DNA of 58,716 nucleotides from Candidatus Aphodosoma sp. (GTDB lineage: Bacteria > Bacteroidota > Bacteroidia > Bacteroidales > Paludibacteraceae): NCBI GenBank assembly GCA_045653825.1, contig JAZOMI010000049.1, forward strand, positions 1 through 58,716, given 5' to 3'. Positions within the stretch are counted from its first letter, which is position 1, and each line of letters starts with the position of its first letter. Of the stretch, positions 4,772 to 55,181 are shown one piece after another. The notes beneath the pieces were generated by a model. It saw only the letters and a program-made list of their open reading frames with translations. It ran no database searches and had not been told where the DNA came from. The translations under genes and the position numbers were made by a program.

Positions 4772-5046
4772 ATCAATTCAACTCTTTTTGTAATTAACTG
4801 ATTTACAACAAATCAGCTTTAAATAAATTTGTTTTAATAAATTAATTTATTGAAATATTTTTCAGTCCTCAAAGTTGTAATTTTTTTTTGACATAACAAA
4901 ATGTTTTTTAATATTTTTTCAAAAAAAATTACAAAAAACACTCATTGCAACAACCACAATACTAATAATCAACATATTAACCCAACTCTATTCTCAATTC
5001 TCAATTCTCAACTCTCAATTCTATTGCTACTTTCAACTTTTTTTTG

Positions 5047-6503: not shown

Positions 6504-7487
6504 ATGAATTCAAAACGCTTTTTGGTGTACATTAAGCGACAAGGGAATAAAGTTGCTACATTCTTGAAATCTCGAGATGTAGTAACTTTTTTGTTCTTCT
6601 TCGTCCTCGCTTTCTTCTTATGGTATATGTATAACATTGGCACTCAACGCGAAATCAGTCGCCGAATACCAATCACATATATCGGTATCCCCGACAACGT
6701 CCAACTCGAAAAAAAATTACCACAAGAGATAAAATTTGTAATCAAGGACGAAGGTAAAACCATTTGGAGCTATCGCAAATCCCAATTCGATACGCTCCGA
6801 ATCGACCTAACCAACCATTTCAACGAAAACAACACCCTCGAAATAAAATTCGAAGAACAATTCAAAAAAATCCTCTCTCATCTCTCACCAACCACCAAAG
6901 TTATAGAACTAAATCCGGGCTATTTCTCATCAAAATACATACGTCTATACTCTAAATCAGTGCCTGTTGTTACAAGCAATGTAATCAAACTCGCACCACA
7001 ACACGTCATGTACGACACAATAGCCATATCGCCCAAATTCATCTCACTAATTGGCACAAAAGAATCTGTTGACACCATCTCCTATCTCTATCTCGAACCA
7101 ATAACCGAAACCTTCGACAAAACCAAAACCCTCTCTGTCAACATTCAAAAACCTCAAGGCGTAAATATCAATCGCACATCCGTAAACGTAACAATCCCAG
7201 TCGAAATGTGCACCGAAAAAGAAGTAACAGTTCCAATCGTAGTCGAAAATCTACCACGAAACACCTATATCCGCACCTTCCCATCCGAAGTCAAAATTCG
7301 TTTCAGCGTAGGTCTCAGCCACTACAACTCCGTAACCGAATCCACCTTCCGTGCCATATTCGACTACAACGATATCCGCCTCAACCCCGACAAAAGTACT
7401 GCCACCCTCCAACTCGACTACACCTCAGGCTACATCTTCAACATCCAACTCACCCCATCCGAAGTCGAATACATAATTGAGAATTGA
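6504..7487 (+). CDS. YbbR-like domain-containing membrane protein
   Basis: 327 aa with an N-terminal TM helix. Its position between yajC and coaE matches Bacteroides. The family call is from memory. Confidence 0.55.
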   Translation: MNSKRFLVYIKRQGNKVATFLKSRDVVTFLFFFVLAFFLWYMYNIGTQREISRRIPITYIGIPDNVQLEKKLPQEIKFVIKDEGKTIWSYRKSQFDTLRIDLTNHFNENNTLEIKFEEQFKKILSHLSPTTKVIELNPGYFSSKYIRLYSKSVPVVTSNVIKLAPQHVMYDTIAISPKFISLIGTKESVDTISYLYLEPITETFDKTKTLSVNIQKPQGVNINRTSVNVTIPVEMCTEKEVTVPIVVENLPRNTYIRTFPSEVKIRFSVGLSHYNSVTESTFRAIFDYNDIRLNPDKSTATLQLDYTSGYIFNIQLTPSEVEYIIEN

Positions 7488-13889: not shown

Positions 13890-14084
13890 ATGAGTGAAAA
13901 GGGTTATACAATCGTACAATTGGTTTTGGCATCTTGCGTATTGGGATGCTCAACCGTGTCGCTCGTTGGAGCAATCGTGGTGCATGGGTTTCAGACCTGG
14001 CAGTTGGCAAATCTTACGTTCGTTGTGTTGTCGGCAGTGATGATGAAGTGGGCGGTTGAGGAGTACAGGGAAGCGAGGAAATAA
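13890..14084 (+). CDS. small two-TM membrane protein
   Basis: 64 aa with two hydrophobic helices. No family recognised. Confidence 0.5.
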   Translation: MSEKGYTIVQLVLASCVLGCSTVSLVGAIVVHGFQTWQLANLTFVVLSAVMMKWAVEEYREARK

Positions 14085-14163
14085 TGCATAATGCATAATG
14101 CACAATGCACAATTCACAATTCACAATGCACAATTCATAATTCATAATTCATAATTCATAATT
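14083..14163. repeat. heptamer-word array (AATGCAT/AATGCAC/AATTCAC/AATTCAT)
   Basis: About 11 tandem 7-nt words fill the spacer before the AAA+ gene. Confidence 0.85.
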
Positions 14164-14166
14164 ACT

Positions 14167-15048
14167 ATGTTAACAGAAGAACAAAAACAGAGAATAGCCG
14201 AAGCGATGGTGTTGCGCCGTGAGATGTTTGCGGGCACGGATTCGCAATGGGCATTGTCGTTGGGCATCAATGCCTCGGTATATAATCGCATCAAGCGCGG
14301 TGAGCGCGAGCGCGTGTTGGCAGATGCGAAATGGATAACGATAGCACGCTTGTTGGAGGTGGAGCTGTCGACAGCTTCGCCATGGAACACAGCACGCACG
14401 GCGGTGTTTGTCAGCGTGACGGCGCAGTTGCAGTTTTGCCAAGAGAACTCGTCGTGGGCGATACTATGCGACGAAGCTGGTATTGGGAAGACCTATGCAG
14501 CACGCTACTACTCGCGCACGAACAAGAATGTGGTGTATGTGGATTGTTCGCAACACAAGACTCGTCGCCGCCTCATGATAGAGATAGCACGAGCGCTGGG
14601 CGTTGACACCCACGGGACGTATTACGAAGTGTTTGACGACTTGCGCTACTACATCAAGACGATAGACCATCCACTGATTATTCTCGACGAAGCAGGCGAT
14701 CTGCGCTATGAGGCGTTTTTGGAAGTGAAGGCGTTGTGGAATGCGGTGGAGAACTGTTGCGGTATCTACATGCTCGGCGCTGATGGACTACGAGCAAAGA
14801 TAGAGCGAGGCATCAACTGCAGGAAGGTGGGTTTTGTGGAGCTCTTCGACCGTCAGGGGGCACGCTTCCAGCGCATCACGCCCGAAGGCCGAGAGGCACG
14901 CCAAGAGTTTCATGCTGCACAAGCAGCTGCTGTGATACGCGCCAATGCACCAGCCGACACCGACATACGAGCCATGCTTGCCGCTACTGACTGCCGACTT
15001 AGGAGGATATATATTGAGGTGAAGAAAAGAATGAGGAATGAGGAGTGA
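14167..15048 (+). CDS. MuB/TniB-like AAA+ ATPase with N-terminal HTH (transposition target-selection type)
   Basis: 293 aa with Walker A DEAGIGKT, Walker B LIILDEAG, and an N-terminal HTH-like WALSLGINASVYNRIKRG. Adjacent to the DDE transposase. Confidence 0.7.
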   Translation: MLTEEQKQRIAEAMVLRREMFAGTDSQWALSLGINASVYNRIKRGERERVLADAKWITIARLLEVELSTASPWNTARTAVFVSVTAQLQFCQENSSWAILCDEAGIGKTYAARYYSRTNKNVVYVDCSQHKTRRRLMIEIARALGVDTHGTYYEVFDDLRYYIKTIDHPLIILDEAGDLRYEAFLEVKALWNAVENCCGIYMLGADGLRAKIERGINCRKVGFVELFDRQGARFQRITPEGREARQEFHAAQAAAVIRANAPADTDIRAMLAATDCRLRRIYIEVKKRMRNEE

Positions 15049-15129
15049 GGAGTTAGGAGTTAGGAATTACCTCTAATCTCTAATCTCTAACCTCTAACCT
15101 ATAACCTTTCAACTTTCAACTTTTAACTG
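15046..15129. repeat. heptamer-word array (AGGAGTT then CTCTAAT/CTCTAAC/TCAACTT words)
   Basis: Purine-type words follow the stop; pyrimidine-type words precede the next ATG. Confidence 0.85.
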
Positions 15130-17136: not shown

Positions 17137-17250
17137 CAATGCACAATGCAGAATGCAGAATTAGGAATTGAGAATTAAGAATTGAGAATTGAGAATTTAG
17201 AATTGAGAATTAAGAATTGAGAATTGAGAATTGAGAATTAACTTTCAACT
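17137..17250. repeat. heptamer-word array (AATGCAC, AATGCAG, ~12 x GAGAATT-type words)
   Basis: Long uninterrupted period-7 array. Confidence 0.9.
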
Positions 17251-17877: not shown

Positions 17878-17962
17878 ACAATGCACAATACATAATGCAC
17901 AATGCACAATCTTTCACCTATAACCTTTCACCTATAACCTATAACCTCTAACCTCTAAATTT

Positions 17963-18415: not shown

Positions 18416-18549
18416 GAATTGAGAATTGAGAATTAACTTTAACCTATAACCTCTAACCTTTAACCTATAACCTATAAGCACTAATCTTTAATTACTAACC
18501 CCAACGACTGCGAGTCTCGCTACTCGTTACTAAAAATCTAAAAAAAACA

Positions 18550-19273: not shown

Positions 19274-19412
19274 ACAATGCACAATTCATAATGCACAATG
19301 CACAATTGAGAACCTAAGGTCTTTGAGCCTTTGGAGATAAAATTAAGAATTAACTCTTAACTCTAACCTCTAACCATTAACCTCTAATCTCTAACTTCTC
19401 AACTTTCAATTT

Positions 19413-21610: not shown

Positions 21611-21783
21611 AGGAGTGAGGAATATGGAATGTGGAATTTTTGCGATAAGCGAAGGCAGAATCAAGCTCTGCTTGAGTTATGCTGAGCGAAGCAAAAATCA
21701 CGACCATAGGGAGGAATGAGGAATTAGGAATGAGAAATTAGGAGTGAGGAATTAGGAATTGTGCATTATGCATTGTGCATTGA

Positions 21784-23563: not shown

Positions 23564-23710
23564 ATTCTTTAAATTTTTAGTAGCGAGCTTTTTTTTAATG
23601 CACAATGCACAATTTTTAATGCACAATACACAATTGTTTAGGTTCGCCAGGGGTGAATAAAAAAAATTGTTAGTTATAGTTGGTAATTAGGAAAAATGTT
23701 GTAAATTTGC

Positions 23711-23785
23711 AGTCAGAAGAGTAAATGACTAACTTGACACGGGTGCTTGAGCCCCGCGGTTAGTCGTTTACTCTTCTTCTTTTTT
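23711..23785 (+). ncRNA. candidate small RNA A1 (19-bp terminal stem, apical hairpin, T-run)
   Basis: TAAATTTG -7 box at 23702-23709. Stem 23715-23733 / 23759-23777 with an inner hairpin CGGGTGC-TTGA-GCCCCG, then T5. Confidence 0.55.
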
Positions 23786-23854
23786 ATTCCTTTGGTAAAT
23801 ATTAATGTTTTTAGCCATATCCTTTGGTAATTTCAAAAAAAGTTGTAACTTTGC

Positions 23855-23954
23855 AGTGTCTTGACGGGTTCTTGCAATACAGAACAATCGGCGTGGGGCT
23901 TTGTGTCGCCACGCTTGTAAGTAAGATAACCACCCTTCGGGGTGGCTTTTTTTT
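23855..23954 (+). ncRNA. candidate small RNA B
   Basis: TTTG-N19-TAACTTTG promoter with the -7 box at 23846-23853. Terminator CCACCCTTCGGGGTGG (23930-23945) plus T8. Shares a CTTGAC..GGGT.CTTG motif with A1 and A2. Confidence 0.55.
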
Positions 23955-24024
23955 ATTCCCTTGGTAAATATTAATGTTTTTAGCCATATCCTTTGGTAAT
24001 TTTAAAAAAAAGTTGTAACTTTGC

Positions 24025-24100
24025 AGTCAGAAGAGTAAATGACTAACTTGATTCGGGTGCTTGAGCCCCGCGGTTAGTCGTTTACTCTTCTTCTTTTTTT
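24025..24100 (+). ncRNA. candidate small RNA A2 (near-identical copy of A1)
   Basis: Duplicate ~70-bp promoter module with the -7 box at 24016-24023. Stem 24029-24047 / 24073-24091 plus T7. The 3' arm covers the MuF stop codon on the opposite strand. Confidence 0.55.
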
Positions 24101-25368
24101 GCCATCAAGAAATATGGGTGCTCTTGCATTTTATCGTTATACTCTTTAGCATAGCATTTAACAACGAGAGTAATGCCATCGAACGGAACTTCGTATTTCA
24201 CGAAATATTTCATACCTACATTTACCTTGTCTTGGTAGTTAGGACGTTTTTCGTTCAGTTCTTCATATTTACCATTTTTCAATAATGGTAATATTTCGTT
24301 CATCCTCTTTACACATTCCACCTCTAACATTGAAATGCAGTGTGATATAATAGCACCAACATCATCCGATCCATAATATATATTGCCAGAATATATTTTG
24401 TCAGAGGTAAAAGTGATAGGAGGATTTTTCTTTAGTTGCTTTTTAACAACATCTCTATAGCGATAGAAACAAGGCACATTCTTATATGTCAGATTTCTCA
24501 TTGTTTCTATATTTTCCCTTTTTCGTAATACATTAAGCATCGCGCACGCTTGGCAGTTGGCGTTGCGAGGGTTGTATTTGAGGTTGAGGTTTGAGTCGCA
24601 GCCTTGGCACTGACCTTTGGGTGGGTAGTTGGTAGAGCGTTCGAATGCCTTGCGAGAGCGCCCCACATTGGTGCGGAAGATTTGGTTGCCTTTCTTCTCG
24701 GTGTAGTGGTTGCCGATGGCAATGGCTTCGTCGCTCGATAGTGTTGATTGGTACTTGCCACGGCGCACTTGCACAGCCGAGCAACGGCATCCCCAACCAT
24801 TGGGTGGGTAGTACGATTGCCAAAATGGGTCGGAAGGAGGGAGTGTGACGCCGTCGAGGTCGCGGTGTTCGGGGCGGACACGGTTGTCGCCCACGGTGCG
24901 ATATTGGAGGTCGTAGTGGTCGCCATCGCGCTCGATGTCGGCCCAATGCGCTGCCATTTGAGCCACTTGAGAGGCGTGTTGATATTCGGCACGGAGGTTC
25001 AACCCCTGTTTGCGGAACACATCGCCTGCCGCACGTTCGAACTCCTCATAGGGCAATATGCCACCATCACGATCGACTATCATCAGGCCAGCCTCCTCCA
25101 TGGTGCGCACCGCTTTCCAACCAGAGAAGATAAAAGCATTGTCGCGCAGCGCAGCTGTCAGTTCGGGCGACACCTCACGCTCTATTGCTCCAGTGCGCTC
25201 GCTACCTTGGTCGGCAGAGCCAGCCATATAGTCTGCCATACCCCTATCGATAGCATCGCAGATGATGCGATAGTTCTCCATGACGACAGCTTCGCCCTCG
25301 GAGGTGGTGAGCAGTTTGGGGCTGTAGCCTTTCTCCTTCCAGATACGGCGAATAGCATCGGCAATCAC
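24082..25368 (-). CDS. MuF-like head morphogenesis protein (SPP1 gp7 family) with an extra AT-rich C-terminal domain
   Basis: 428 aa with the core motif VGDNRVRPEHRDLDGVTLPPSDPFWQSYYPPNGWGCRCS. The track start at 25368 is GTG. The last ~150 codons (24082-~24540) switch to host-like AT-rich composition. Confidence 0.85.
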   Translation of the reverse strand: MIADAIRRIWKEKGYSPKLLTTSEGEAVVMENYRIICDAIDRGMADYMAGSADQGSERTGAIEREVSPELTAALRDNAFIFSGWKAVRTMEEAGLMIVDRDGGILPYEEFERAAGDVFRKQGLNLRAEYQHASQVAQMAAHWADIERDGDHYDLQYRTVGDNRVRPEHRDLDGVTLPPSDPFWQSYYPPNGWGCRCSAVQVRRGKYQSTLSSDEAIAIGNHYTEKKGNQIFRTNVGRSRKAFERSTNYPPKGQCQGCDSNLNLKYNPRNANCQACAMLNVLRKRENIETMRNLTYKNVPCFYRYRDVVKKQLKKNPPITFTSDKIYSGNIYYGSDDVGAIISHCISMLEVECVKRMNEILPLLKNGKYEELNEKRPNYQDKVNVGMKYFVKYEVPFDGITLVVKCYAKEYNDKMQEHPYFLMAKKEEE

Positions 25369-26750: not shown

Positions 26751-26811
26751 AAGAGTGAGGAGTTAGGAGTTAGGAGTTAGGAGTGATGAGTGATTTAATT
26801 GTGCATTGTTA

Positions 26812-27228: not shown

Positions 27229-27286
27229 AAGAGTGAGGAGTTAGGAGTTAGGAGTTAGGAGTGATTTAATTGTGCATTGTGCATTG

Positions 27287-28828
27287 TCAATAAAGGTTTT
27301 TTGGAGATGGGCGGCGACCGATGCGAGGGGTGAAGGTTTCGTGGCGTGTGCGTTGTTGCAGGATGTAGATTGCGCCCTCGTCGGCATCGGGAGCATCGTC
27401 GTGTCCGCTCATGCCTTTTTCGAAAGCGAGTGTTTGGTCGAGACCAGCCAGCATATCAGGGTCTTTCTTCTTCTGTTCGTTGTAGAAGACCACGCCACGC
27501 TCCCAGAGAGGGCTGATGCTTTCGATGCGCTGAAACTTGTCGGGCTTTTTGCGGCGGTCGGCACGGATGGGGAGTTGGTAGCCACGACACTCGCCCTCAC
27601 GGCGGAACTCGTCGAGGATGATATCCTGAAGGAAATTGGCTTCGATGTAGTAGCTTGCGACGGCATGAGCAGCTTGCACACGCTCGTGTAGGTCGTAGAA
27701 CCAACGCACCATTTCGGTGACGGTGGTTTGTCGCACAAAGGCGTCGATGTGGTGTAGTTCGCCCGACTTGGTTTTGCCCCAGAGCTTGATAGCCTTGTAG
27801 TCGTTTTTGGTCGAAGCCTTGAACGAGGGGTCGCAGTAAGCCACAAGTTCGTGGTAGTCGCGCAGAGGCAACATGCGTCGCCAGCGCACCCAGTCGGCAC
27901 GGAAGACTGCACCCTCGGTGATAGGATTGTTCATCATCTCCTTTTGGAAGGAGCGGTAGCCCATGAATCGGGCTTGAGCTTCGACCTCTTCGCGACTCCA
28001 TTTGGTAGCCCACGACGGATTGCCTTGAGCATCGAGGGCATTGACACGAGTGACGTGGACGCCATCGGTTTGAGCAATGCGAGCGAGCACACTATTTTTG
28101 CCAATGAGGTTGCCAACCATGATGAAACGCCCACGGCCACCGTCGAGCGCACCAAACAGCGCCTCCTTAACCCAGTCGGTGAGACGAGAGACACGTTGAG
28201 GATTTTCGACAAGTTCGTCGTCGTCGAGGTCGTCGATGACGATATAGTCGGGACGATGAGAGCGGTAGCGCAACCCACGAGGCGACTGACCACGACCACG
28301 AGCAAAGAAAGCCACATCGTCTTGAGTGACGAATTCGCCATCGGTCCATTCGCCCTCCTTCTTCTGCACGCCAAAGTCTGCAATGTAGCGTTGGTTGAAC
28401 TCAAGTTCCGCCTGAATGTCGGAGAGCAGAGTGTTGGCATTGTCTTGCGACTTGCCCACGAGCACCATCACATTGAGCTGGCGTTGGCGTTGACACTTGA
28501 GCCATAGCGGAATCATCACATCGCAATGGGTAGATTTGGCATGGCCACGCGCCCACATAAACACAGCTTTGAGGTTAGGGTTTTTCTTCACCTTGTTGGC
28601 CGCTTCGATGTGGAAGGGAGCCGATGCTGTGATAGCACCAGTTTGGGGATTGGTGCAGTAGTGAGGGAAATAGTATTCCACAAAATAGGCATAATCCTTG
28701 CGAGCGCGCTCGATACGGCGGTCGCGGTCGGCAGGAGTCTCCTGTCGGTTGACAATGGTCATGCTCTGAATGGTCTTGCACAGTTCGCGCCAATCGGCGA
28801 GGGCTTTTTTCTTATTAGATAGATTCAT
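27287..28828 (-). CDS. terminase large subunit
   Basis: 513 aa with an ATPase region (MWARGHAKSTH, IVIDDLDDDE) and a C-terminal nuclease-like region. Follows the small subunit. Confidence 0.8.
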   Translation of the reverse strand: MNLSNKKKALADWRELCKTIQSMTIVNRQETPADRDRRIERARKDYAYFVEYYFPHYCTNPQTGAITASAPFHIEAANKVKKNPNLKAVFMWARGHAKSTHCDVMIPLWLKCQRQRQLNVMVLVGKSQDNANTLLSDIQAELEFNQRYIADFGVQKKEGEWTDGEFVTQDDVAFFARGRGQSPRGLRYRSHRPDYIVIDDLDDDELVENPQRVSRLTDWVKEALFGALDGGRGRFIMVGNLIGKNSVLARIAQTDGVHVTRVNALDAQGNPSWATKWSREEVEAQARFMGYRSFQKEMMNNPITEGAVFRADWVRWRRMLPLRDYHELVAYCDPSFKASTKNDYKAIKLWGKTKSGELHHIDAFVRQTTVTEMVRWFYDLHERVQAAHAVASYYIEANFLQDIILDEFRREGECRGYQLPIRADRRKKPDKFQRIESISPLWERGVVFYNEQKKKDPDMLAGLDQTLAFEKGMSGHDDAPDADEGAIYILQQRTRHETFTPRIGRRPSPKNLY

Positions 28829-28894
28829 AGGTTAGTGAGGAGTGAGGAATTAGGAATGAGGAATTAAAAATTCTCAATTCTCAACTCTCAACTC

Positions 28895-29350
28895 TCAATT
28901 TTCTTCGGTGAGGGTAAGGTTGTTGAGTTTTTCGGAGATGAAAAGGTCTTGGTAGCGATTCATCACCTTGACGAGTTCGGGGGTGAGTTCGGGGTCGAGG
29001 TTCATGCGATTGACGAGCCATTGGTTATAGACCGAGAAGACCTCGATGACGGTAACGATGTTGGTTTGGCGGTCGATTTTTTCGATAGCAGTAGCCGCTT
29101 TGCAGACCTCGTCGGCAGTCCAGTCGCCCGATTCGATTTTGTCGTCCAACTGTTGGAGCATTTTTTTGACGATTTCGCCACGGCTGACGGTTTTAGCAGC
29201 ACGGCGTTCGCTCCAGCCGTTGTCGTTGATCCATTTGTTGATGGTTTGGCGAGTGACGCCCACTTTTTCGGCAATCTCTTGTTGCCCCATGCCTTGCATG
29301 TAGAGCGCAAAAGCAAATTCGCGTTGCGCCTCTTTTGTCATTTTTGTCAT
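28895..29350 (-). CDS. terminase small subunit (HTH)
   Basis: 151 aa with an N-terminal HTH (QQEIAEKVGVTRQTINKWINDNGW). First gene of the leftward late operon. Confidence 0.6.
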   Translation of the reverse strand: MTKMTKEAQREFAFALYMQGMGQQEIAEKVGVTRQTINKWINDNGWSERRAAKTVSRGEIVKKMLQQLDDKIESGDWTADEVCKAATAIEKIDRQTNIVTVIEVFSVYNQWLVNRMNLDPELTPELVKVMNRYQDLFISEKLNNLTLTEEN

Positions 29351-29598
29351 TCAATATTATTATAGGTTAGAGATTAGAGGTTAGTTAGAAATGAGGAATG
29401 AGGAATGAGGAATTGCTGAGCGAAGCAAAAATCACGACCGAAGGGAGTAATTCTCAATTCTCAACTCTCAATTCTCAATTCTGCATTGTTTTTACGGTGC
29501 AAATTTCGCCATATATTTACATATATAAAAAAAGTATGTAAGTTATTGACACTCTATTTTTTGCAATGACAAAAAATAGTGAAATTTGCACCAGCAAA

Positions 29599-29671
29599 AG
29601 CGGGTTGGAGCAGAGGTCAGCTCGCGGGGTTCATTCCCCCGAGGTCGGTGGTTCGAATCCACCACCCGCTA
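29599..29671 (+). tRNA. prophage-encoded tRNA with CAU anticodon (Met/Ile2-type) and an unusual U at position 37
   Basis: Hand-folded cloverleaf. Acceptor AGCGGGT/ACCCGCT, D arm GAGC-AGAGGTCA-GCTC, anticodon arm CGGGG-TTCATTC-CCCCG, variable AGGTC, T arm GGTGG-TTCGAAT-CCACC, discriminator A. Confidence 0.75.
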
Positions 29672-29727
29672 CAATTTTTACAATGCACAATTAACTCTAA
29701 ACTCTCAACACTCAACTCTAAACTAAA

Positions 29728-32608: not shown

Positions 32609-32944
32609 ATGGCAACAAAAAAAACAACCCAAACCGAAGAACCTGTTGAACAAACAACAGAACAAACAGCTGAAGCTACTGCCGAAACTACAACCGAAGC
32701 ACCTGCAGAACAAAAGGTAGAACAACCTGCTGAAGCTACTGCTGAAGGCGAAGTTGTGAAGTCGTGCAACATCGCAGTGTATAACGAAGTAGGACAACGA
32801 TTGCTTGCGCTACATCCAACGGTGAACGAAGTGTATGTGACCAGCGATGGCTATGCGTTCCTCTCGCTCAACGCAGCGCAAAACAACGCTCGCAACCTAC
32901 GCGGCCATAAAGTATTTGTCGTGAAACGAAGCGAAAATCAGTAA
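32609..32944 (+). CDS. hypothetical structural-module protein with acidic T/E/A-rich N-terminus
   Basis: 111 aa ORF in the same orientation in the head-tail module. Confidence 0.5.
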   Translation: MATKKTTQTEEPVEQTTEQTAEATAETTTEAPAEQKVEQPAEATAEGEVVKSCNIAVYNEVGQRLLALHPTVNEVYVTSDGYAFLSLNAAQNNARNLRGHKVFVVKRSENQ

Positions 32945-44382: not shown

Positions 44383-45288
44383 ATGAAAAAGTCTATTCTA
44401 TTATTTTGCATTATAGCGATAGCTATGAATGTAATGGCATACCACCCAATCGTGGTTGATGGCTATAATTGGAATGTGGTTAATCGTCGAGCAAATCTCG
44501 ATGAAAATAATACTATTGTATATTCTACTGTAGTTGAAAAAATTGAAGGTGATTCAGTCGTAAATGGCATAACATATAAAAAACTTTGGCGCAGTACAAA
44601 CAAAGAAATGACCGAATACAATGTTATTGCTATTATACGCGAAGATATCGAAAATCAAAAAATATGGACTTGTATTGGCGAAAAAGAATATTTGATTTAT
44701 GATTTCGCTTGTAAAGTAGGTGATAAGGTAACTATTCTTAAATCGCTACAAAGCGCAGAAATCACCGCCGAAGAGGTTGAAATGACTATCAATGCTATTG
44801 AAGAATTTGAAGATTTTAATGGCGTAAAACTAAACAAATATATTGCAACAGTTGACAATAAAGAAACTGTTTATTATGAACGTTATGGTTCAGAAAATGG
44901 TTGGTATAGTCGTTCTTTCGATGGCATCAGTGGCGGTGGAATCAATTTCATGATTTGCGCTTTCGATGCAAACGGCGAATTGCAATTCAAACCTACATAC
45001 AATAATGAATTAGACGAAATAGCTGATTGTTATATAAACGAAACCAAAAGTGATATTGCTGACATCAATACATTGACACAAAACATCTATTACAACTCAC
45101 AAGAAAAGATGTTGTTTGTTGATATAGAAAACGCAGAAACTCTAATGGTTTATGACGCAATGGGCAAAATTGTTATGACAAAAGAAATCAATTCTACTAC
45201 TAAATCAATTCCTATTAACTTAAATACTGGCATCTACATCATAACAACCAACAACCAGAACATATATTCAAAAATATTCATTAAATAA
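44383..45288 (+). CDS. secreted protein with T9SS type A C-terminal sorting domain
   Basis: Start at MKKSILLFCIIAIAMNVMA (ATG 44383). The C-terminus LMVYDAMGKIVMTKEI...LNTGIYIITTNNQNIYSKIFIK is a typical Por/T9SS tail. Confidence 0.7.
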   Translation: MKKSILLFCIIAIAMNVMAYHPIVVDGYNWNVVNRRANLDENNTIVYSTVVEKIEGDSVVNGITYKKLWRSTNKEMTEYNVIAIIREDIENQKIWTCIGEKEYLIYDFACKVGDKVTILKSLQSAEITAEEVEMTINAIEEFEDFNGVKLNKYIATVDNKETVYYERYGSENGWYSRSFDGISGGGINFMICAFDANGELQFKPTYNNELDEIADCYINETKSDIADINTLTQNIYYNSQEKMLFVDIENAETLMVYDAMGKIVMTKEINSTTKSIPINLNTGIYIITTNNQNIYSKIFIK

Positions 45289-45303
45289 AAACTAAAAACA
45301 AAA

Positions 45304-45337
45304 GGCGGACACCCAAAACAAGGATGTCCGCCTTTTT
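45304..45337. terminator. bidirectional intrinsic terminator between convergent genes
   Basis: GGCGGACA (45304-45311) pairs with TGTCCGCC (45325-45332), with an A-run upstream and a T-run downstream. Confidence 0.75.
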
Positions 45338-45350
45338 ATTTTATATAACA

Positions 45351-46814: not shown

Positions 46815-46989
46815 AATAAATAAAATTGAAAGTTGAAAGTTGAGAATTGAGAATTGAGAATTGAGAATTGAGAACCGAAGGTCTTTGAGCCTTTGGCGAT
46901 AAAATTGAAAATTGATAATTGAAAATTGATAATAAAATATTTAATTTCTAACTCCTAACTCCTAACTCCTAACTCCTAACTCCTCACTC
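46815..46989. repeat. composite intergenic unit: heptamer-word arrays flanking a hairpin word
   Basis: TGAAAGT and GAGAATT words, then GAACCGAAGGTCTTTGAGCCTTTGGCGATAAAATT, then TGAAAAT/TGATAAT words, then 5 x CTCCTAA words. Confidence 0.9.
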
Positions 46990-48867
46990 CTAATTCCTCA
47001 TTCCTAACTCCTCATTCCACATTTTAACATTAGGATTCAACACCATTGTTCTCATTCTATCGAATAACGCCTCCTGCTTTATCTCGCCATAAAGATACTG
47101 TTCAAGACAGAGCATAGCAATAGGACAAGCAAATTGCGCTCCAAAACCAGCATTTTCAATTACCACTGCAATAGCTATCTGCGGATTCTCTCGCGGAGCA
47201 TACCCGAAAAATATTGAGTGTGGTTTGCCTTGACTATTATCTGTAGTACCTGTTTTGCCACACACAACCAATTCTGAGAACTTATAAAAATGCGGAGTAC
47301 CATACTCACACACTCGCCACATACCTTCTTGCACTACATCATAATGTTTCTGACTAACATTTGCTTCATGTCGATGAGTCAAAAAAGTATCACATTTATT
47401 CAAATGCGGAGTTATATAATAACCTTCATTGGCAATAACAGCCGCAGCATTAGCAAGTTGAATTGGTGTTACCAACACCTCACCTTGTCCAATCGAGTTA
47501 GAACGAATAGTGAGAGCCTTCCACCCTCGCTCTCCATAAATTTTATTATACGTTTCTTCTCTATATATAGCCCCATCTTTCAACCCATACACATCTGAAT
47601 CTTCCCACTTAAAACCCAATCCAAAACTTAAAATATCTTCACGCCAACGAGTATAATTCTTTTTAAAATTAGCATTTCGCTCACCATAACCGTCTCGTTC
47701 AAGCGTCTCTTTATAAGCTAACCAAAAATATGGATTACAACTCTCTTGTATTGCCTCTTCAAGCCCTACTGGTGAACCATGATTGTGAGTACACTTTATT
47801 GGTTTAGAAAGCGGTCCGTTACAAGGAAATTTTGTGTAACGCGTAATCCCACCATGCTCCAAACAAACCAAGGCTTGTAAGGTTTTAAATGTCGAACCTG
47901 GCGAATACAACCCTCCTGTCGCACGATTGAGAAATGGTTTTGTCGCATCTTTCTGCAATATCGGATAATACTCCGAACGCAAACGTCCAACCAACAACGA
48001 TGGATTCCAGGTAGGATTAGATGCCATAGCCAAAATCTCTCCCGTCGATGGCTCTATTGCCACTATACTACCTATCTTTCCTTCCAACAACTTCTCGGCT
48101 ATCATCTGCAACTCTACATCTAACGTCGTTGTTATATTCTCACCTGCAACAGGCATTTTATCCAACTCGCCATCTTTATATTTTCCCTGAATACGACCCC
48201 GCGAATCGCGCAAAAGTATCTCTACTCCATTCACTCCCCTCAACTCTTTCTCGTAAGTCAACTCCAACCCTTCCGAACCAGCATAATCACCAGGACGATA
48301 ATAATCATCTCGCTCTATTTGTCGCTTACTCACCTCTCCAATCGAACCTAAAACATGTGCACCACAAGGATAATTATAATTACGCAATGTACGATTTTGA
48401 ACCGTAAAACCTGGAAATTTACGCAAATGCTCTTGAAGCATTGCATAATCCTCAGGCGACAATTGCGTCATAAATCTTTGTGGAGTCAATTGCGAATATC
48501 CATAATTCTTACGTCGATCTTTGATATATGCCATTCGATCACAAAATTGATCATACGTAATACCCAACAATCCACACAACTCTAATGTATCTATCGGAGT
48601 ACCTGCTTTTTTCTGATCTCGCAACTCCTTCATCGTTACCATCAAATCATACGTTGGCTGATTATATACCAACAACTTTCCATTACGGTCATAAATCAAT
48701 CCACGAGGCGCATAAAGTGTCTTTTGATAAAATGCATTTCCCTCTGCCGCATCAGTATAATTACCAAACAACTGCAATTGTGCCAACCTACCTATGAATA
48801 AAACCACAAATAGTGCTAACACAACAGAAATTATAATACTTCTATCTTTATATTTATCGTCTAACAT
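46990..48867 (-). CDS. mrdA: penicillin-binding protein 2
   Basis: 625 aa with an N-terminal TM helix and transpeptidase motifs (STFK, SNS, KTGT). Lies in the mreBCD-mrdA-rodA cluster. Confidence 0.9.
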   Translation of the reverse strand: MLDDKYKDRSIIISVVLALFVVLFIGRLAQLQLFGNYTDAAEGNAFYQKTLYAPRGLIYDRNGKLLVYNQPTYDLMVTMKELRDQKKAGTPIDTLELCGLLGITYDQFCDRMAYIKDRRKNYGYSQLTPQRFMTQLSPEDYAMLQEHLRKFPGFTVQNRTLRNYNYPCGAHVLGSIGEVSKRQIERDDYYRPGDYAGSEGLELTYEKELRGVNGVEILLRDSRGRIQGKYKDGELDKMPVAGENITTTLDVELQMIAEKLLEGKIGSIVAIEPSTGEILAMASNPTWNPSLLVGRLRSEYYPILQKDATKPFLNRATGGLYSPGSTFKTLQALVCLEHGGITRYTKFPCNGPLSKPIKCTHNHGSPVGLEEAIQESCNPYFWLAYKETLERDGYGERNANFKKNYTRWREDILSFGLGFKWEDSDVYGLKDGAIYREETYNKIYGERGWKALTIRSNSIGQGEVLVTPIQLANAAAVIANEGYYITPHLNKCDTFLTHRHEANVSQKHYDVVQEGMWRVCEYGTPHFYKFSELVVCGKTGTTDNSQGKPHSIFFGYAPRENPQIAIAVVIENAGFGAQFACPIAMLCLEQYLYGEIKQEALFDRMRTMVLNPNVKMWNEELGMRN

Positions 48868-49435: not shown

Positions 49436-50283
49436 TTTTCTAACGATTTTTGAAGATTCAACAACTCATTCTGATTTTCAAAAGCAAACACTGTCACATA
49501 CGTCAACGACTGAAAATCAACAGCTAGAGCAATATCTATATCACAATACATCGTATTTTCTACAATCGTAGCCTTATCAACAACACCTATCATCATACCT
49601 TCAGGAAATATTGCAGAAAAACCACTTGTCACAATCGTATCGCCAGCCACAACATTTACATGATTTGGTATTTCATATAATTTAGCTTTCAACGGACTCT
49701 TTCCATTCCATTTTACAGAACCTAACTGATTATTACCCTTTATCTTTGCACTTATCACCTGCTCTGGATTTATAATTGGCAACACTACAGAATAATTTTC
49801 ACTCACTCGTTGCACAACTCCCACAACACCCTGCGGAGCAAATACCCCCATATCCTCTTCCACTCCTTGCGCACTTCCCTTGTCGATAATTATATAGTTC
49901 TGCATATCATACACACTATTATAAACCACCTTCGCCGACAAATAATTATCACCACACTGCACCTCAACACTATCTACAATCTCTAATCTGTTATCTGTAA
50001 TCTGTAATCTGTTATCTGTAATCTGTAATCTATAATTCGCTATCTCTTTGTACAATCGAGCATTCTCCTCTGCTAAATACTTATTCGCCTCTGCCAATCC
50101 AAAATAATCTGTTACCGAATTAGTAATTCCATACACCCATGCCGTCAAAGTTGTCGCATAACGAAATGCCACCGAACGTTGCAAATCATTTTTATTCACG
50201 ACAAGCCCAAGTGCCAACATCTCCAACACCACGAAGATAATGACAGCCAAATATTTATAAAAAAACTCTAATATTTTATTCAT
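49432..50283 (-). CDS. mreC: rod shape-determining protein MreC
   Basis: Start taken at MNKILEFFYKY (50283). TM helix, coiled coil, and a conserved C-terminal core (GDTIVTSGFSAIFPEGMMIGVV). Confidence 0.85.
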   Translation of the reverse strand: MNKILEFFYKYLAVIIFVVLEMLALGLVVNKNDLQRSVAFRYATTLTAWVYGITNSVTDYFGLAEANKYLAEENARLYKEIANYRLQITDNRLQITDNRLEIVDSVEVQCGDNYLSAKVVYNSVYDMQNYIIIDKGSAQGVEEDMGVFAPQGVVGVVQRVSENYSVVLPIINPEQVISAKIKGNNQLGSVKWNGKSPLKAKLYEIPNHVNVVAGDTIVTSGFSAIFPEGMMIGVVDKATIVENTMYCDIDIALAVDFQSLTYVTVFAFENQNELLNLQKSLEK

Positions 50284-54178: not shown

Positions 54179-54931
54179 CTAACTCCTCATTGTATGAAAT
54201 ATATTCTCTATCGACCCATATTTCGCCACAAGCGCATCCTTCTCGCCCTGCTCAATCACATTACCCTTATTGATAACTATTACATCGTCGCATACTTGCT
54301 CCACCTCTTGCATAATATGAGTAGAAAATATCACCAATCTATCACGCCCCAAATCCTTAATCAACTGACGAATTTCTATCAACTGATTAGGGTCAAGACC
54401 TGTAGTAGGCTCATCGAGTATCAACACTTTCGGATTATGAATGATAGCCGCTGCAATACCCACTCTCTGACGATACCCCTTCGACAACTGCTTAATCAAC
54501 TTATGAGACTCACTCGTCAACCCCGTCCGCTCAATCACCTCCTCCACAACTTCTTTTTTCGCTAACTGTGCATTGTGCATTTTTCGCCAAGGCTCAAGAC
54601 CTTTGGTTGTGCATTGTGCATTATATATCCCTGCCACAAAGTCCAAATATTCACGCACATACATATCCAAATACAACGGATTGTGTTCTGGCAAATATCC
54701 CACCAATCTCTTAGTATCCACATCATCCACCGCCACTCTCTTGCCATCAATCAACACTTCTCCCTCATCGGCAGCAATATAACCCGTAACAATCTTCATC
54801 AACGTAGATTTACCCGCCCCATTCGGACCCAATAAACCCACAATGCGCCCAGCACCAAACTCCTGACATATAGAGTTCAACACCCTCTGCGCATCATAAC
54901 TTTTCGATATATTCTTTATTTCTAACAACAT
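54179..54931 (-). CDS. ABC transporter ATP-binding protein (GldA-like) carrying a ~19-codon repeat-derived insertion
   Basis: 250 aa with Walker A GPNGAGKST, signature LSKGYRQR and Walker B VLILDEPT. The extra segment NAQCTTKGLEPWRKMHNAQ is encoded by intergenic-type words (54566-54622). Confidence 0.85.
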   Translation of the reverse strand: MLLEIKNISKSYDAQRVLNSICQEFGAGRIVGLLGPNGAGKSTLMKIVTGYIAADEGEVLIDGKRVAVDDVDTKRLVGYLPEHNPLYLDMYVREYLDFVAGIYNAQCTTKGLEPWRKMHNAQLAKKEVVEEVIERTGLTSESHKLIKQLSKGYRQRVGIAAAIIHNPKVLILDEPTTGLDPNQLIEIRQLIKDLGRDRLVIFSTHIMQEVEQVCDDVIVINKGNVIEQGEKDALVAKYGSIENIFHTMRS

Positions 54932-55181
54932 AATCTAATAACATCTATAATACCCTACATTACATTAACATTGTACATCAAAATACTATTAACCTAATAT
55001 TGTCCCCCTGTCTTAGGGGGACGAGCCCAATGGGCGGAAGGGGTCAAAAAATTAATAATAATTGAAACGCAAAAATACAAAAAAATTATGAATTCAACAC
55101 TAAAAAAATATAGTTATTTTCACTCAAAAAAAATAATTGTGCATTGTGCATTGTGCATTTTTTAGTAACTTTACGATCCGT

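Follow-up and report, generated by a model that had tools for sequence, protein, structure and literature searches.

Convergent small RNA units at the end of the MuF gene in a Mu-like prophage of Candidatus Aphodosoma sp.: predicted promoters, conserved folds and a shuffling cassette array

Introduction

What are three short, non-coding units doing on the strand opposite the late genes of a gut prophage? The question is raised by a 58,716-nt contig of Candidatus Aphodosoma sp. (JAZOMI010000049.1), called the window here and taken as a whole, in which an island at 23680-24100 on the plus strand holds three units in the order A1-B-A2, each composed of a predicted promoter, a short structured RNA and a terminator ending in a U-run. 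The minus-strand genes around it follow the order terminase, Gp36-like gene, portal, MuF, island, a 219-aa (amino acid) orphan gene, a small open reading frame (ORF) and endolysin. The late genes all lie on the minus strand, and the plus-strand RNA units therefore point against the late operon. An earlier note on this DNA had described three non-coding plus-strand units and suggested regulatory antisense RNAs, anti-defence decoys or the RNA part of an RNA-protein system as candidate roles; the description stood, while the antisense relation to the late operon, the overlap with the MuF stop codon and the cassette variation reported here go beyond it. Compared loci carry the labels L001-L104.

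Results

Anatomy of the island

All coordinates and sequences of the earlier note proved correct on re-examination. Each unit opens with a -7 box of the Bacteroidetes type TAnnTTTG on the plus strand (Table 1), and the last two boxes are preceded by TTTG at the canonical spacing noted before, measured as 19 nt and 20 nt, respectively. The first promoter, that of A1, is a diverged copy with GTTG at -33. The -7 box alone shows no enrichment, occurring 73 times in the window against 60.6 expected, and the bipartite motif TTTG-N18-21-TAnnTTTG occurs 10 times against 2.0 expected, two of these in the island. The extended pattern GGTAATT..TGTAAMTTTRC is found within the 58.7 kb solely at the three island sites. 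Elsewhere in Bacteroidales this pattern stands upstream of tRNA, rRNA and ribosomal-protein genes, which leads us to read the cassette promoters as strong, housekeeping-type Bacteroidales promoters, a prediction from the consensus. With such a promoter on each RNA gene, expression in the lysogen is probable, and the RNAs are probably transcribed singly.

A1 and A2 form a 94-nt repeat of 96% identity, and the duplicated promoter module described earlier was recovered as a 62-nt inter-cassette repeat at 97% identity. The U-runs of the cassettes occur on the plus strand only. Predicted RNA 5' ends lie within a few bases of the closing stem, with 3' ends at predicted intrinsic terminators. The previous statement that the units hold no ORF needs narrowing: no conserved ORF is present, but mechanical ORF calling gives frames of 39-58 aa that overlap the island on each strand. 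B also contains a 19-codon UUG frame, and none of these small frames is conserved among the compared relatives.

Table 1. Positions in the window of the island units, their predicted promoters and the two bordering genes.
Feature	Position	Strand	Details
Promoter of A1	23679..23709	+	GTTG 23679-23682; TAAATTTG 23702-23709; homologous to first-cassette promoters of L008, L010 and L017
A1 RNA gene, long-hairpin class	23711..23785	+	stem arms 23715-23733 / 23759-23777; U-run end
Inter-cassette promoter module 1	23780..23853	+	TTTG 23823-23826; 19 nt; TAACTTTG 23846-23853
B RNA gene, Y-shaped class	23855..23954	+	terminator CCACCCTTCGGGGTGG 23930-23945 plus T8
Inter-cassette promoter module 2	23949..24023	+	TTTG 23992-23995; 20 nt; TAACTTTG 24016-24023
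A2 RNA gene	24025..24100	+	stem arms 24029-24047 / 24073-24091; 3' arm and U-run antisense to the MuF end
MuF-like head morphogenesis gene, 428 aa	24082..25368	-	Pfam Phage_Mu_F (PF04233), 1e-15
Hypervariable orphan gene, 219 aa	22904..23563	-	ATG 23563; downstream of the island on the late strand; other border of the hot spot

RNA structures and the functional strand

The RNAs of the window and its relatives fall into two structural classes, a long hairpin (A, A', A'', B') and a Y-shaped RNA followed by a terminator (B, B'', C, D). The A fold consists of a 19-20-bp stem with an internal loop and an inner GC hairpin, CGGGTGC-TTGA-GCCCCG, with a folding energy of -35.6 kcal/mol (z = -7.0 to -7.3; 0 of 200 shuffles equally stable). 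As reported before, A1 and A2 are near-identical and differ in two junction bases (CA versus TT). B reaches -33.5 kcal/mol (z = -2.2); in its fold a 7-bp stem closes off two hairpins, and downstream come the GC hairpin and T8 of its terminator, which a terminator scan detects.

Across A, A' and A'', 6 of the 19 stem pairs vary, with every change compensated on both sides and no one-sided change. In the stem alignment, 96% of cells are paired, compared with 43-56% when the partners are slid. One compensatory change in L010 alters the overlapping MuF codon from E to G, so the RNA stem outweighed the protein there. The junctions of A, A', A'' and B have a UUGR motif in common. Comparison of B with B'' (79% identical) reveals an identical 30-nt 5' block, a retained closing stem and a rebuilt second hairpin, and C, D and the L104 unit share the Y shape and terminator of B without sequence similarity. 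On this comparative evidence, the island RNA structures are under selection.

The earlier note had also called for a covariance model and a homologue search. On the RNA (plus) strand the model of A reaches 75-100 bits, compared with 22-36 on the other (100 versus 35 for A1), and the search located homologues with compensatory stem changes in related prophages, true copies being confined to the islands among the loci examined. A further match, at window positions 45287-45346, was rejected as an ordinary terminator between convergent host genes. The central U.G pair of the A stem is conserved, with a 3x3 U-loop taking its place in A''.

Strand is the point on which one alternative turns, namely that the late (minus) strand is the functional one, the hairpins acting as RNase III processing sites or 3'-stabilising elements in the late mRNA, as intercistronic hairpins do in T7 early mRNA, with the plus-strand promoters incidental. 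The reverse complements do fold almost equally well (-35.4 and -31.2 kcal/mol for A, z ~ -8), and the central mismatch or internal loop resembles RNase III processing signals. However, the consensus promoter at the right distance and the U-run are found on the plus strand only, in every cassette of every phage. The U.G pair likewise forms on the plus strand only, turning into an A.C mismatch on the minus strand, where covariance-model scores are 3-fold lower, and the terminators of B, C and D are canonical on the plus strand only. Function on the minus strand is accordingly considered highly improbable.

Cassettes in related prophages

Siblings were found by protein search with MuF combined with contig look-ups in gut metagenomes, by a DNA pattern scan (L098) and in a Ca. 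Aphodosoma metagenome-assembled genome (MAG; L080, partial). Six related prophages carry the island at the matching place, with one to three cassettes in varied combinations. Written so that the last cassette adjoins MuF, the arrays read A-B-A in the window, A in L008, B'-A' in L010, A'-C-D in L011, A-B in L017, B'-A-A'' in L098 and B''-A in L080, where the locus is cut. A1 is 100% identical to the MuF-adjacent cassette of L008, and B is 99% identical to that of L017. Overall, five of the eight non-proximal cassettes match the MuF-proximal cassette of another sibling at 99-100% identity.

Inter-cassette promoter module 1 is 96-99% identical in L010, L011, L017 and L098. Unusual conservation of the promoter module was considered and rejected, its identity in the comparison with sibling backbone DNA (96-97% and 85-98%, respectively) equalling the backbone level. 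The C-terminal part of MuF falls to 73-78% in L010 and L098, with its adjacent A at 76%. With these parts diverged relative to the backbone and the orphan gene unique, the island therefore sits in a hypervariable hot spot. The claim that the cassettes are three independent promoter, structured RNA and terminator units on the plus strand is upheld by the cassettes of relatives, the covariation and the strand asymmetry.

Beyond the siblings, a scan of GTDB genomes with the promoter pattern returned 79 loci, nearly all of them ordinary tRNA, rRNA or ribosomal-protein promoters, with the island present in L080 only. The metagenome pattern scan gave one true locus (L098) and one chance match within an ORF (L099). 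In IMG/VR, the exact patterns of A and the promoter module were absent, and the MuF and orphan protein patterns yielded distant loci only or none. Exact look-ups of the MuF, orphan and 78-aa proteins of the window returned no records.

On another view, the RNA products have no function, the strong convergent promoters and terminators insulating the lysis genes from packaging and head read-through by transcriptional interference, or the units being scars of recombination around the hot spot of the MuF C-terminus. Class A is barely more than a promoter and a long terminator hairpin, cassette number ranges from 1 to 3 among near-identical phages without obvious cost, minus-strand scoring, too, rates the B terminator as terminator-like, and conservation of the inter-cassette module does not exceed that of the phage backbone. 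Yet compensatory changes preserve a 19-bp stem far beyond the needs of termination, Y domains upstream of separate terminators are kept in B, B'', C, D and L104, and the units persist at the MuF end where MuF itself has diverged widely (see below). Units without an RNA function are thus thought unlikely.

Position at the end of the MuF gene

The array terminates on the MuF gene. The 3' arm and U-run of A2 are antisense to the last MuF codons, KKEEE, and to the stop codon at 24082-24084, and the terminator of the last cassette overlaps the MuF stop codon in six of six sibling arrays. Where the MuF C-terminus is of the X type described below, the 3' arm of A read in antisense gives KKEE(E/G) and the stop codon. 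A cassette overlapping the MuF coding end, as A2 does in the window at 24082-24100, was also found in L008, L010, L098 and L103, with the terminator lying on the stop codon in L011, L017, L100-L102 and L104.

The site is shared by more distant phages. L100-L104 are Bacteroidales Mu-like phages with MuF proteins 37-53% identical, and each carries one convergent unit at the MuF end, in which a promoter-like site precedes a structured RNA of ~80-95 nt with a terminator, whichever gene comes next. The unit of L103 overlaps ~50 nt of MuF coding sequence. An own promoter and terminator, location on the opposite strand and coverage of the 3' end of the target are the attributes of a 3'-overlapping cis-antisense RNA, and all are found here as sequence predictions.

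A similar unit is present in a low-GC Mu-like phage from IMG/VR (L006/L007), in which ~105 nt in antisense lie at the MuF stop codon (4822-4945, minus strand). Its fold is an 11-bp closing stem around three hairpins, cloverleaf-like, followed by U7, with no tRNA match by ARAGORN and no Rfam match.

The MuF C-terminal domains

MuF consists of a conserved N-terminal part followed by a polymorphic C-terminal domain, which in the window is of the X type (~24085-24495, minus strand) and in L011 and L017 of alternative Y/Z types. Relatives at 76-95% identity carry unrelated C-termini, X or Y/Z, and more distant ones carry CdiA_C or LPD3. MuF is thus a polymorphic locus, with a Phage_Mu_F N-terminal part and variable C-termini among close relatives; the polymorphic-toxin pattern is known for MuF (PMC5576092) and is displayed by the relatives examined here. 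The RNA class follows the C-terminus, X type occurring with the long-hairpin RNA in five of five cases and Y/Z type with the Y-shaped RNA in three of three, including the distant L103 and L104. This association may reflect function or mere linkage.

The X domain has no match in Pfam or PDB sequence searches, and its structural model has a predicted local distance difference test score (pLDDT) of 62 with no Foldseek neighbour. X-type C-termini have distant relatives on other MuF proteins. The Y/Z domain was modeled confidently (pLDDT 87). Structurally it lies closest to phage proteins bearing the names CdiA C-terminal tRNA nuclease or CDI toxin-like (E 2e-5 to 6e-5), with PD-(D/E)XK nucleases next and no significant neighbour in the PDB. 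The invariant residues D73, D82 and K101 form a D-x8-D-x18-K motif whose spacing equals that of D214, D223 and K242 in the Bp1026b tRNase (PMC9086364). Profile comparison with PF18451-bearing (CdiA_C) relatives by hhalign was negative. The Y/Z domain is predicted from its model to be nuclease-like, resembling CdiA-CT tRNases, and the polymorphic C-terminal domain of MuF may be toxic. Iyer et al. predict MuF-C domains to be BECR-type RNases or RNA binders (PMC5512222). Between MuF and the orphan gene, no credible gene for an immunity protein was recognised, a 108-aa gene called there in L011 having been rejected as an antisense artefact.

These domains are the basis of a second alternative, in which the RNAs are protein-binding decoys, or immunity RNAs, for the MuF C-terminal domains, the tRNA-sized Y RNA acting on the nuclease-like Y/Z domain and the long duplex on X, both in the producer and in lysogens that receive the domain from a kin virion, with distal cassettes as orphan immunity genes. 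ToxI and its relatives in type III systems and RNA anti-CRISPRs (Racrs) are small structured RNAs of phages or mobile elements that neutralise a protein, an RNase toxin or a Cas effector, by binding and offer the model. The polymorphic C-termini with CdiA_C or LPD3 in relatives, the model and D/D/K spacing of Y/Z, the BECR-type prediction, the pairing of RNA class with C-terminus type and the absence of an evident protein immunity gene before the next conserved gene are consistent with such a role, as is the orphan gene, which does not follow the C-terminus type.

Against it, physical linkage of neighbouring sequence would equally produce the class association, no fold can be assigned to the X domain, the Y/Z profile is unlike that of the PF18451-bearing relatives and matches no significant PDB nuclease, ARAGORN finds no tRNA-like gene, and toxicity of the C-terminal domains is itself putative. 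Moreover, known type III RNA antitoxins are tandem repeats on the toxin-gene strand rather than convergent, ToxI comprising tandem 36-nt repeats upstream of its toxin. No ToxI-like tandem array of ~34-40 nt was found here, the island repeats being promoter or RNA duplications 314 and 169 nt apart and the units running convergent to MuF, and Tandem Repeats Finder (TRF) reports only 7- to 21-nt intergenic repeats in the window. Racrs mimic CRISPR repeats, and the window contains neither a CRISPR array nor a cas gene. The 19-bp stem is much longer than typical CRISPR repeat hairpins.

A decoy role is judged unlikely overall. The arrangement does recall the orphan immunity arrays of Rhs, CdiA and MuF loci (PMC5576092, PMC3482391), where a variable toxin module sits on a conserved carrier and small cassettes, as though shifted there by recombination, correspond to the toxin-proximal ones of other strains, but those cassettes encode proteins, whereas the present ones are opposite-strand non-coding RNA genes. 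That the cassettes are RNA immunity genes against polymorphic MuF C-terminal nucleases or RNases, each highly expressed RNA neutralising its cognate domain whether injected or made late, with the array as orphan immunities against sibling toxins, seems quite unlikely; if true, this would be the first polymorphic toxin system with immunity based on RNA.

Comparison with known RNA families and systems

The earlier note had placed the RNAs in no known family, and the Rfam and ARAGORN scans it asked for agree. At gathering scores, Rfam 15 reports only the tRNA at 29599-29671 in the window, and relaxing the search to E 10 gives only sub-threshold matches in the island, the best being SR6_antitoxin (26.8 against a gathering score of 55), RefA9 (25.7 against 49) and mir-14 (22 against 53). 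Nine related loci yielded tRNA only. ARAGORN detects just tRNA-Met at 29599 and tRNA-Leu at 48381 in the window, with no match at the units of L006, L011, L100, L101 and L104. The class B RNAs differ from tRNA in having a closing stem and just two arms. A retron or CRISPR component was rejected, no reverse transcriptase or Cas protein being present in the prophage, as was a Mu strong gyrase site or a miniature inverted-repeat transposable element, neither of which accounts for the promoters and terminators.

Known systems with comparable anatomy are antisense RNAs. The type I antitoxins RatA/txpA, SR4/bsrG and SR6/yonT of Bacillus prophage regions and RNA II of Enterococcus par are likewise transcribed convergently from their own promoter, with the terminator at or inside the 3' end of a gene on a prophage or mobile element, and a mode of action through duplex formation and RNase III cleavage is proposed here as well. 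The sense partner here is a 428-aa virion protein with a polymorphic C-terminus and only predicted toxicity rather than a small hydrophobic peptide, and the cassettes are tandem, reside in Bacteroidales and share neither sequence nor Rfam membership with type I antitoxins. No small (<60 aa) hydrophobic toxic peptide was found as sense partner, the 39- and 58-aa minus-strand ORFs not being conserved, so the island is at most type I-like in its working and not a canonical member. Lambda OOP is a 77-nt RNA with its own promoter and terminator, convergent over the 3' end of cII and acting through RNase III. Unlike the island RNAs, OOP targets a lysis-lysogeny regulator and is single-copy, with a different fold and host.

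Another close counterpart is STnc6030 of the Salmonella prophage BTP1, which is antisense to the 3' end of a DNA-injection gene and confers phage-specific superinfection exclusion, directed by sequence at identical or closely related phages, that a single-nucleotide polymorphism (SNP) suffices to escape (PMC7067206). The island RNAs are similarly antisense to the 3' end of a late gene and would, by analogy, act in exclusion; STnc6030 is one RNA of ~500-800 nt, in contrast to the present array of 65-100-nt hairpin RNAs with conserved folds, and the two have no homology. Phage cis-antisense RNA as such is known, and these particular RNAs are not described in Rfam or the literature searched. The unusual elements are the tandem shuffling array, the two structural classes and the fixed tie to a polymorphic MuF C-terminus.

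Prophage-encoded small RNAs (sRNAs) may also act in trans, as DicF, IpeX, AsxR and AgvB do in E. coli. Under this third alternative, the cassettes are 'morons' that reprogramme the lysogen, either by imperfect pairing with host mRNAs or as sponges for host sRNAs or RNA-binding proteins. Independent strong housekeeping-like promoters, a terminator for each RNA and location in a hypervariable accessory hot spot are consistent with it, and so are the constant 30-nt 5' block of B and B'' beside a freely varying hairpin, which has the look of a seed and scaffold, and the UUGR motif recurring in the junctions of A, A', A'' and B. On the other side, no complementarity above chance was detected in a search confined to the 58.7-kb window, where the k-mer search for trans targets returned chance-level 10- to 12-mers only. 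Stems enclose the 5' ends, hardly any sequence of class A is left single-stranded, and a fixed convergent site at the MuF stop across unrelated RNA sequences is unexpected for host-directed regulators. Regulation in trans is thus unlikely.

Discussion

The reading favoured here, tentatively and at a little less than an even chance, is that the cassettes encode constitutive cis-antisense RNAs, by which MuF and late transcripts would be silenced in the prophage itself as well as in superinfecting siblings, with the extra cassettes being displaced or acquired copies. Among the three roles first suggested, regulatory antisense RNA is the one best supported by the anatomy. The MuF-proximal unit would be the ancestral element, its 3' end lying on or inside the last MuF codons. 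We infer that its RNA is transcribed and base-pairs with the late mRNA in a complementary stretch at the 3' end or between cistrons, after which the duplex would be cut, for example by RNase III, or convergent transcription would interfere with late transcription. Acting in the manner of RatA, SR4, SR6 and lambda OOP, the RNA would prevent MuF, the orphan gene and the lysis genes from being expressed by leakage in the lysogen.

Exchange of MuF C-terminal modules at the conserved promoter module would have left behind or brought in the distal cassettes, as copies of the siblings' MuF-proximal units. Since their sequence perfectly complements the late transcripts of those siblings, sequence-specific exclusion of superinfecting siblings is possible, comparable to that by STnc6030. 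Escape through a single SNP, as for STnc6030, would explain both the diversification into A, A' and A'' and the stacking of cassettes.

Several points weigh against silencing in cis. The promoters and terminators are consensus matches. Complementarity in cis is automatic and leaves the Y folds and the 30-nt block of B and B'' unexplained. Non-proximal cassettes overlap no coding sequence of their own phage, and their action in cis needs late read-through. A self-silencing RNA must be overcome at induction, a problem noted for STnc6030 too. The link between cassette class and MuF C-terminus is explicable by genetic linkage. Finally, in the high-GC proteobacterial Mu-like phages L001-L005, MuF is followed by neither a gap nor such a unit, and the feature is therefore lineage-restricted.

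Prophage context and additional observations

The prophage setting proposed earlier is borne out by the Mu-like gene set recovered in the window. The prophage spans ~11.5-42 kb, with a GC content of ~0.5 compared with 0.3-0.4 in the flanks, and encodes a MuB-like ATPase, GemA, Gam, virion morphogenesis gene G, Gp36-like, Portal_Mu and Phage_Mu_F proteins, terminase and an amidase endolysin.

The orphan protein belongs to no Pfam, PHROG or PADLOC family and, beyond its N-terminus, has no homologue among 5.8 billion proteins. Its counterparts in L008, L010, L011, L017, L098 and L101 have a hypervariable middle with both ends conserved, the N-terminus reading MKTKFKPY.G...MQIEAE.D.ERALL and the C-terminal end ..Y....T.EE....I.K. 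The gene is not tied to the MuF C-terminus type, L011 and L098 sharing the orphan and differing in the C-terminus. In L017, an extra insertion of ~60 bp at ~6745-6805 on the sRNA strand, rich in C- and G-runs (CCCCCTCCCCCTGCGGGGACTCCCCCTAACTAAGGGGGAG), lies amid AATGCAC repeats upstream of the orphan gene.

A prophage-encoded tRNA-Met (CAT), at 29599-29672 on the plus strand and with a promoter-like site of its own, sits where the packaging and head operons diverge; L010 and L011 retain it. Tandem 7-nt repeats crowd the intergenic regions of the prophage and the flanking host DNA, including AATGCAC, AGAATTG, ACCTCTA, TAACCTA, GAGTTAG, AATTCTC, AATGAGG, CTAACTC, AATCTGT and others. Examples are the arrays at 14081-14163, 15029-15107, 17157-17239, 17878-17958, 18433-18491, 19274-19404, 21712-21782, 23592-23640, 26753-26793, 27231-27292, 28836-28900, 29390-29482, 29693-29724, 46824-47023, 49971-50045, 54566-54622 and 55136-55159. 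G-poor heptamer arrays directly precede start codons and recur in the sibling prophages, and AATGCACAATGCACAA (<=3 mismatches) occurs 36 times in the window against 1.5 expected. The arrays could represent a leader design in a host without Shine-Dalgarno use, or regulator-binding arrays.

The 25-mer GCTGAGCGAAGCAAAAATCACGACC occurs twice, in identical form, at 21681-21705 and 29415-29439, between heptamer arrays and at both ends of the minus-strand late/lysis operon, and may be a regulatory or boundary element. The head-region ORF 32609-32944 contains, at 32632-32746, 1.9 copies of a 60-nt unit in tandem (81% matches). The strong-promoter type also precedes ORF-less structured sequence with a terminator in L023 (~2130, minus strand), L075 (126-260, plus strand) and L076 (~2346, minus strand), from termite-gut and other Bacteroidales MAGs, which may be further unannotated small RNA genes.

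Conclusion

The RNA biology of Bacteroidales phages is almost unexplored, and the island RNAs appear in no database. Across a wide group of gut Mu-like phages, a unit at the 3' end of MuF is conserved in position and not in sequence, and one lineage has enlarged it to an array of shuffling cassettes. The two RNA classes supply covariance models for gut-virome annotation, and the promoter module may serve as a strong, portable promoter-terminator part in Bacteroidales. Were the RNAs decoys for the C-terminal domains, RNA would join the immunity factors of polymorphic toxins. If the antisense interpretation is true, the island would represent sequence-programmable silencing by a prophage of its own late or toxin genes together with exclusion of siblings, and the array would be a record of an arms race between them.

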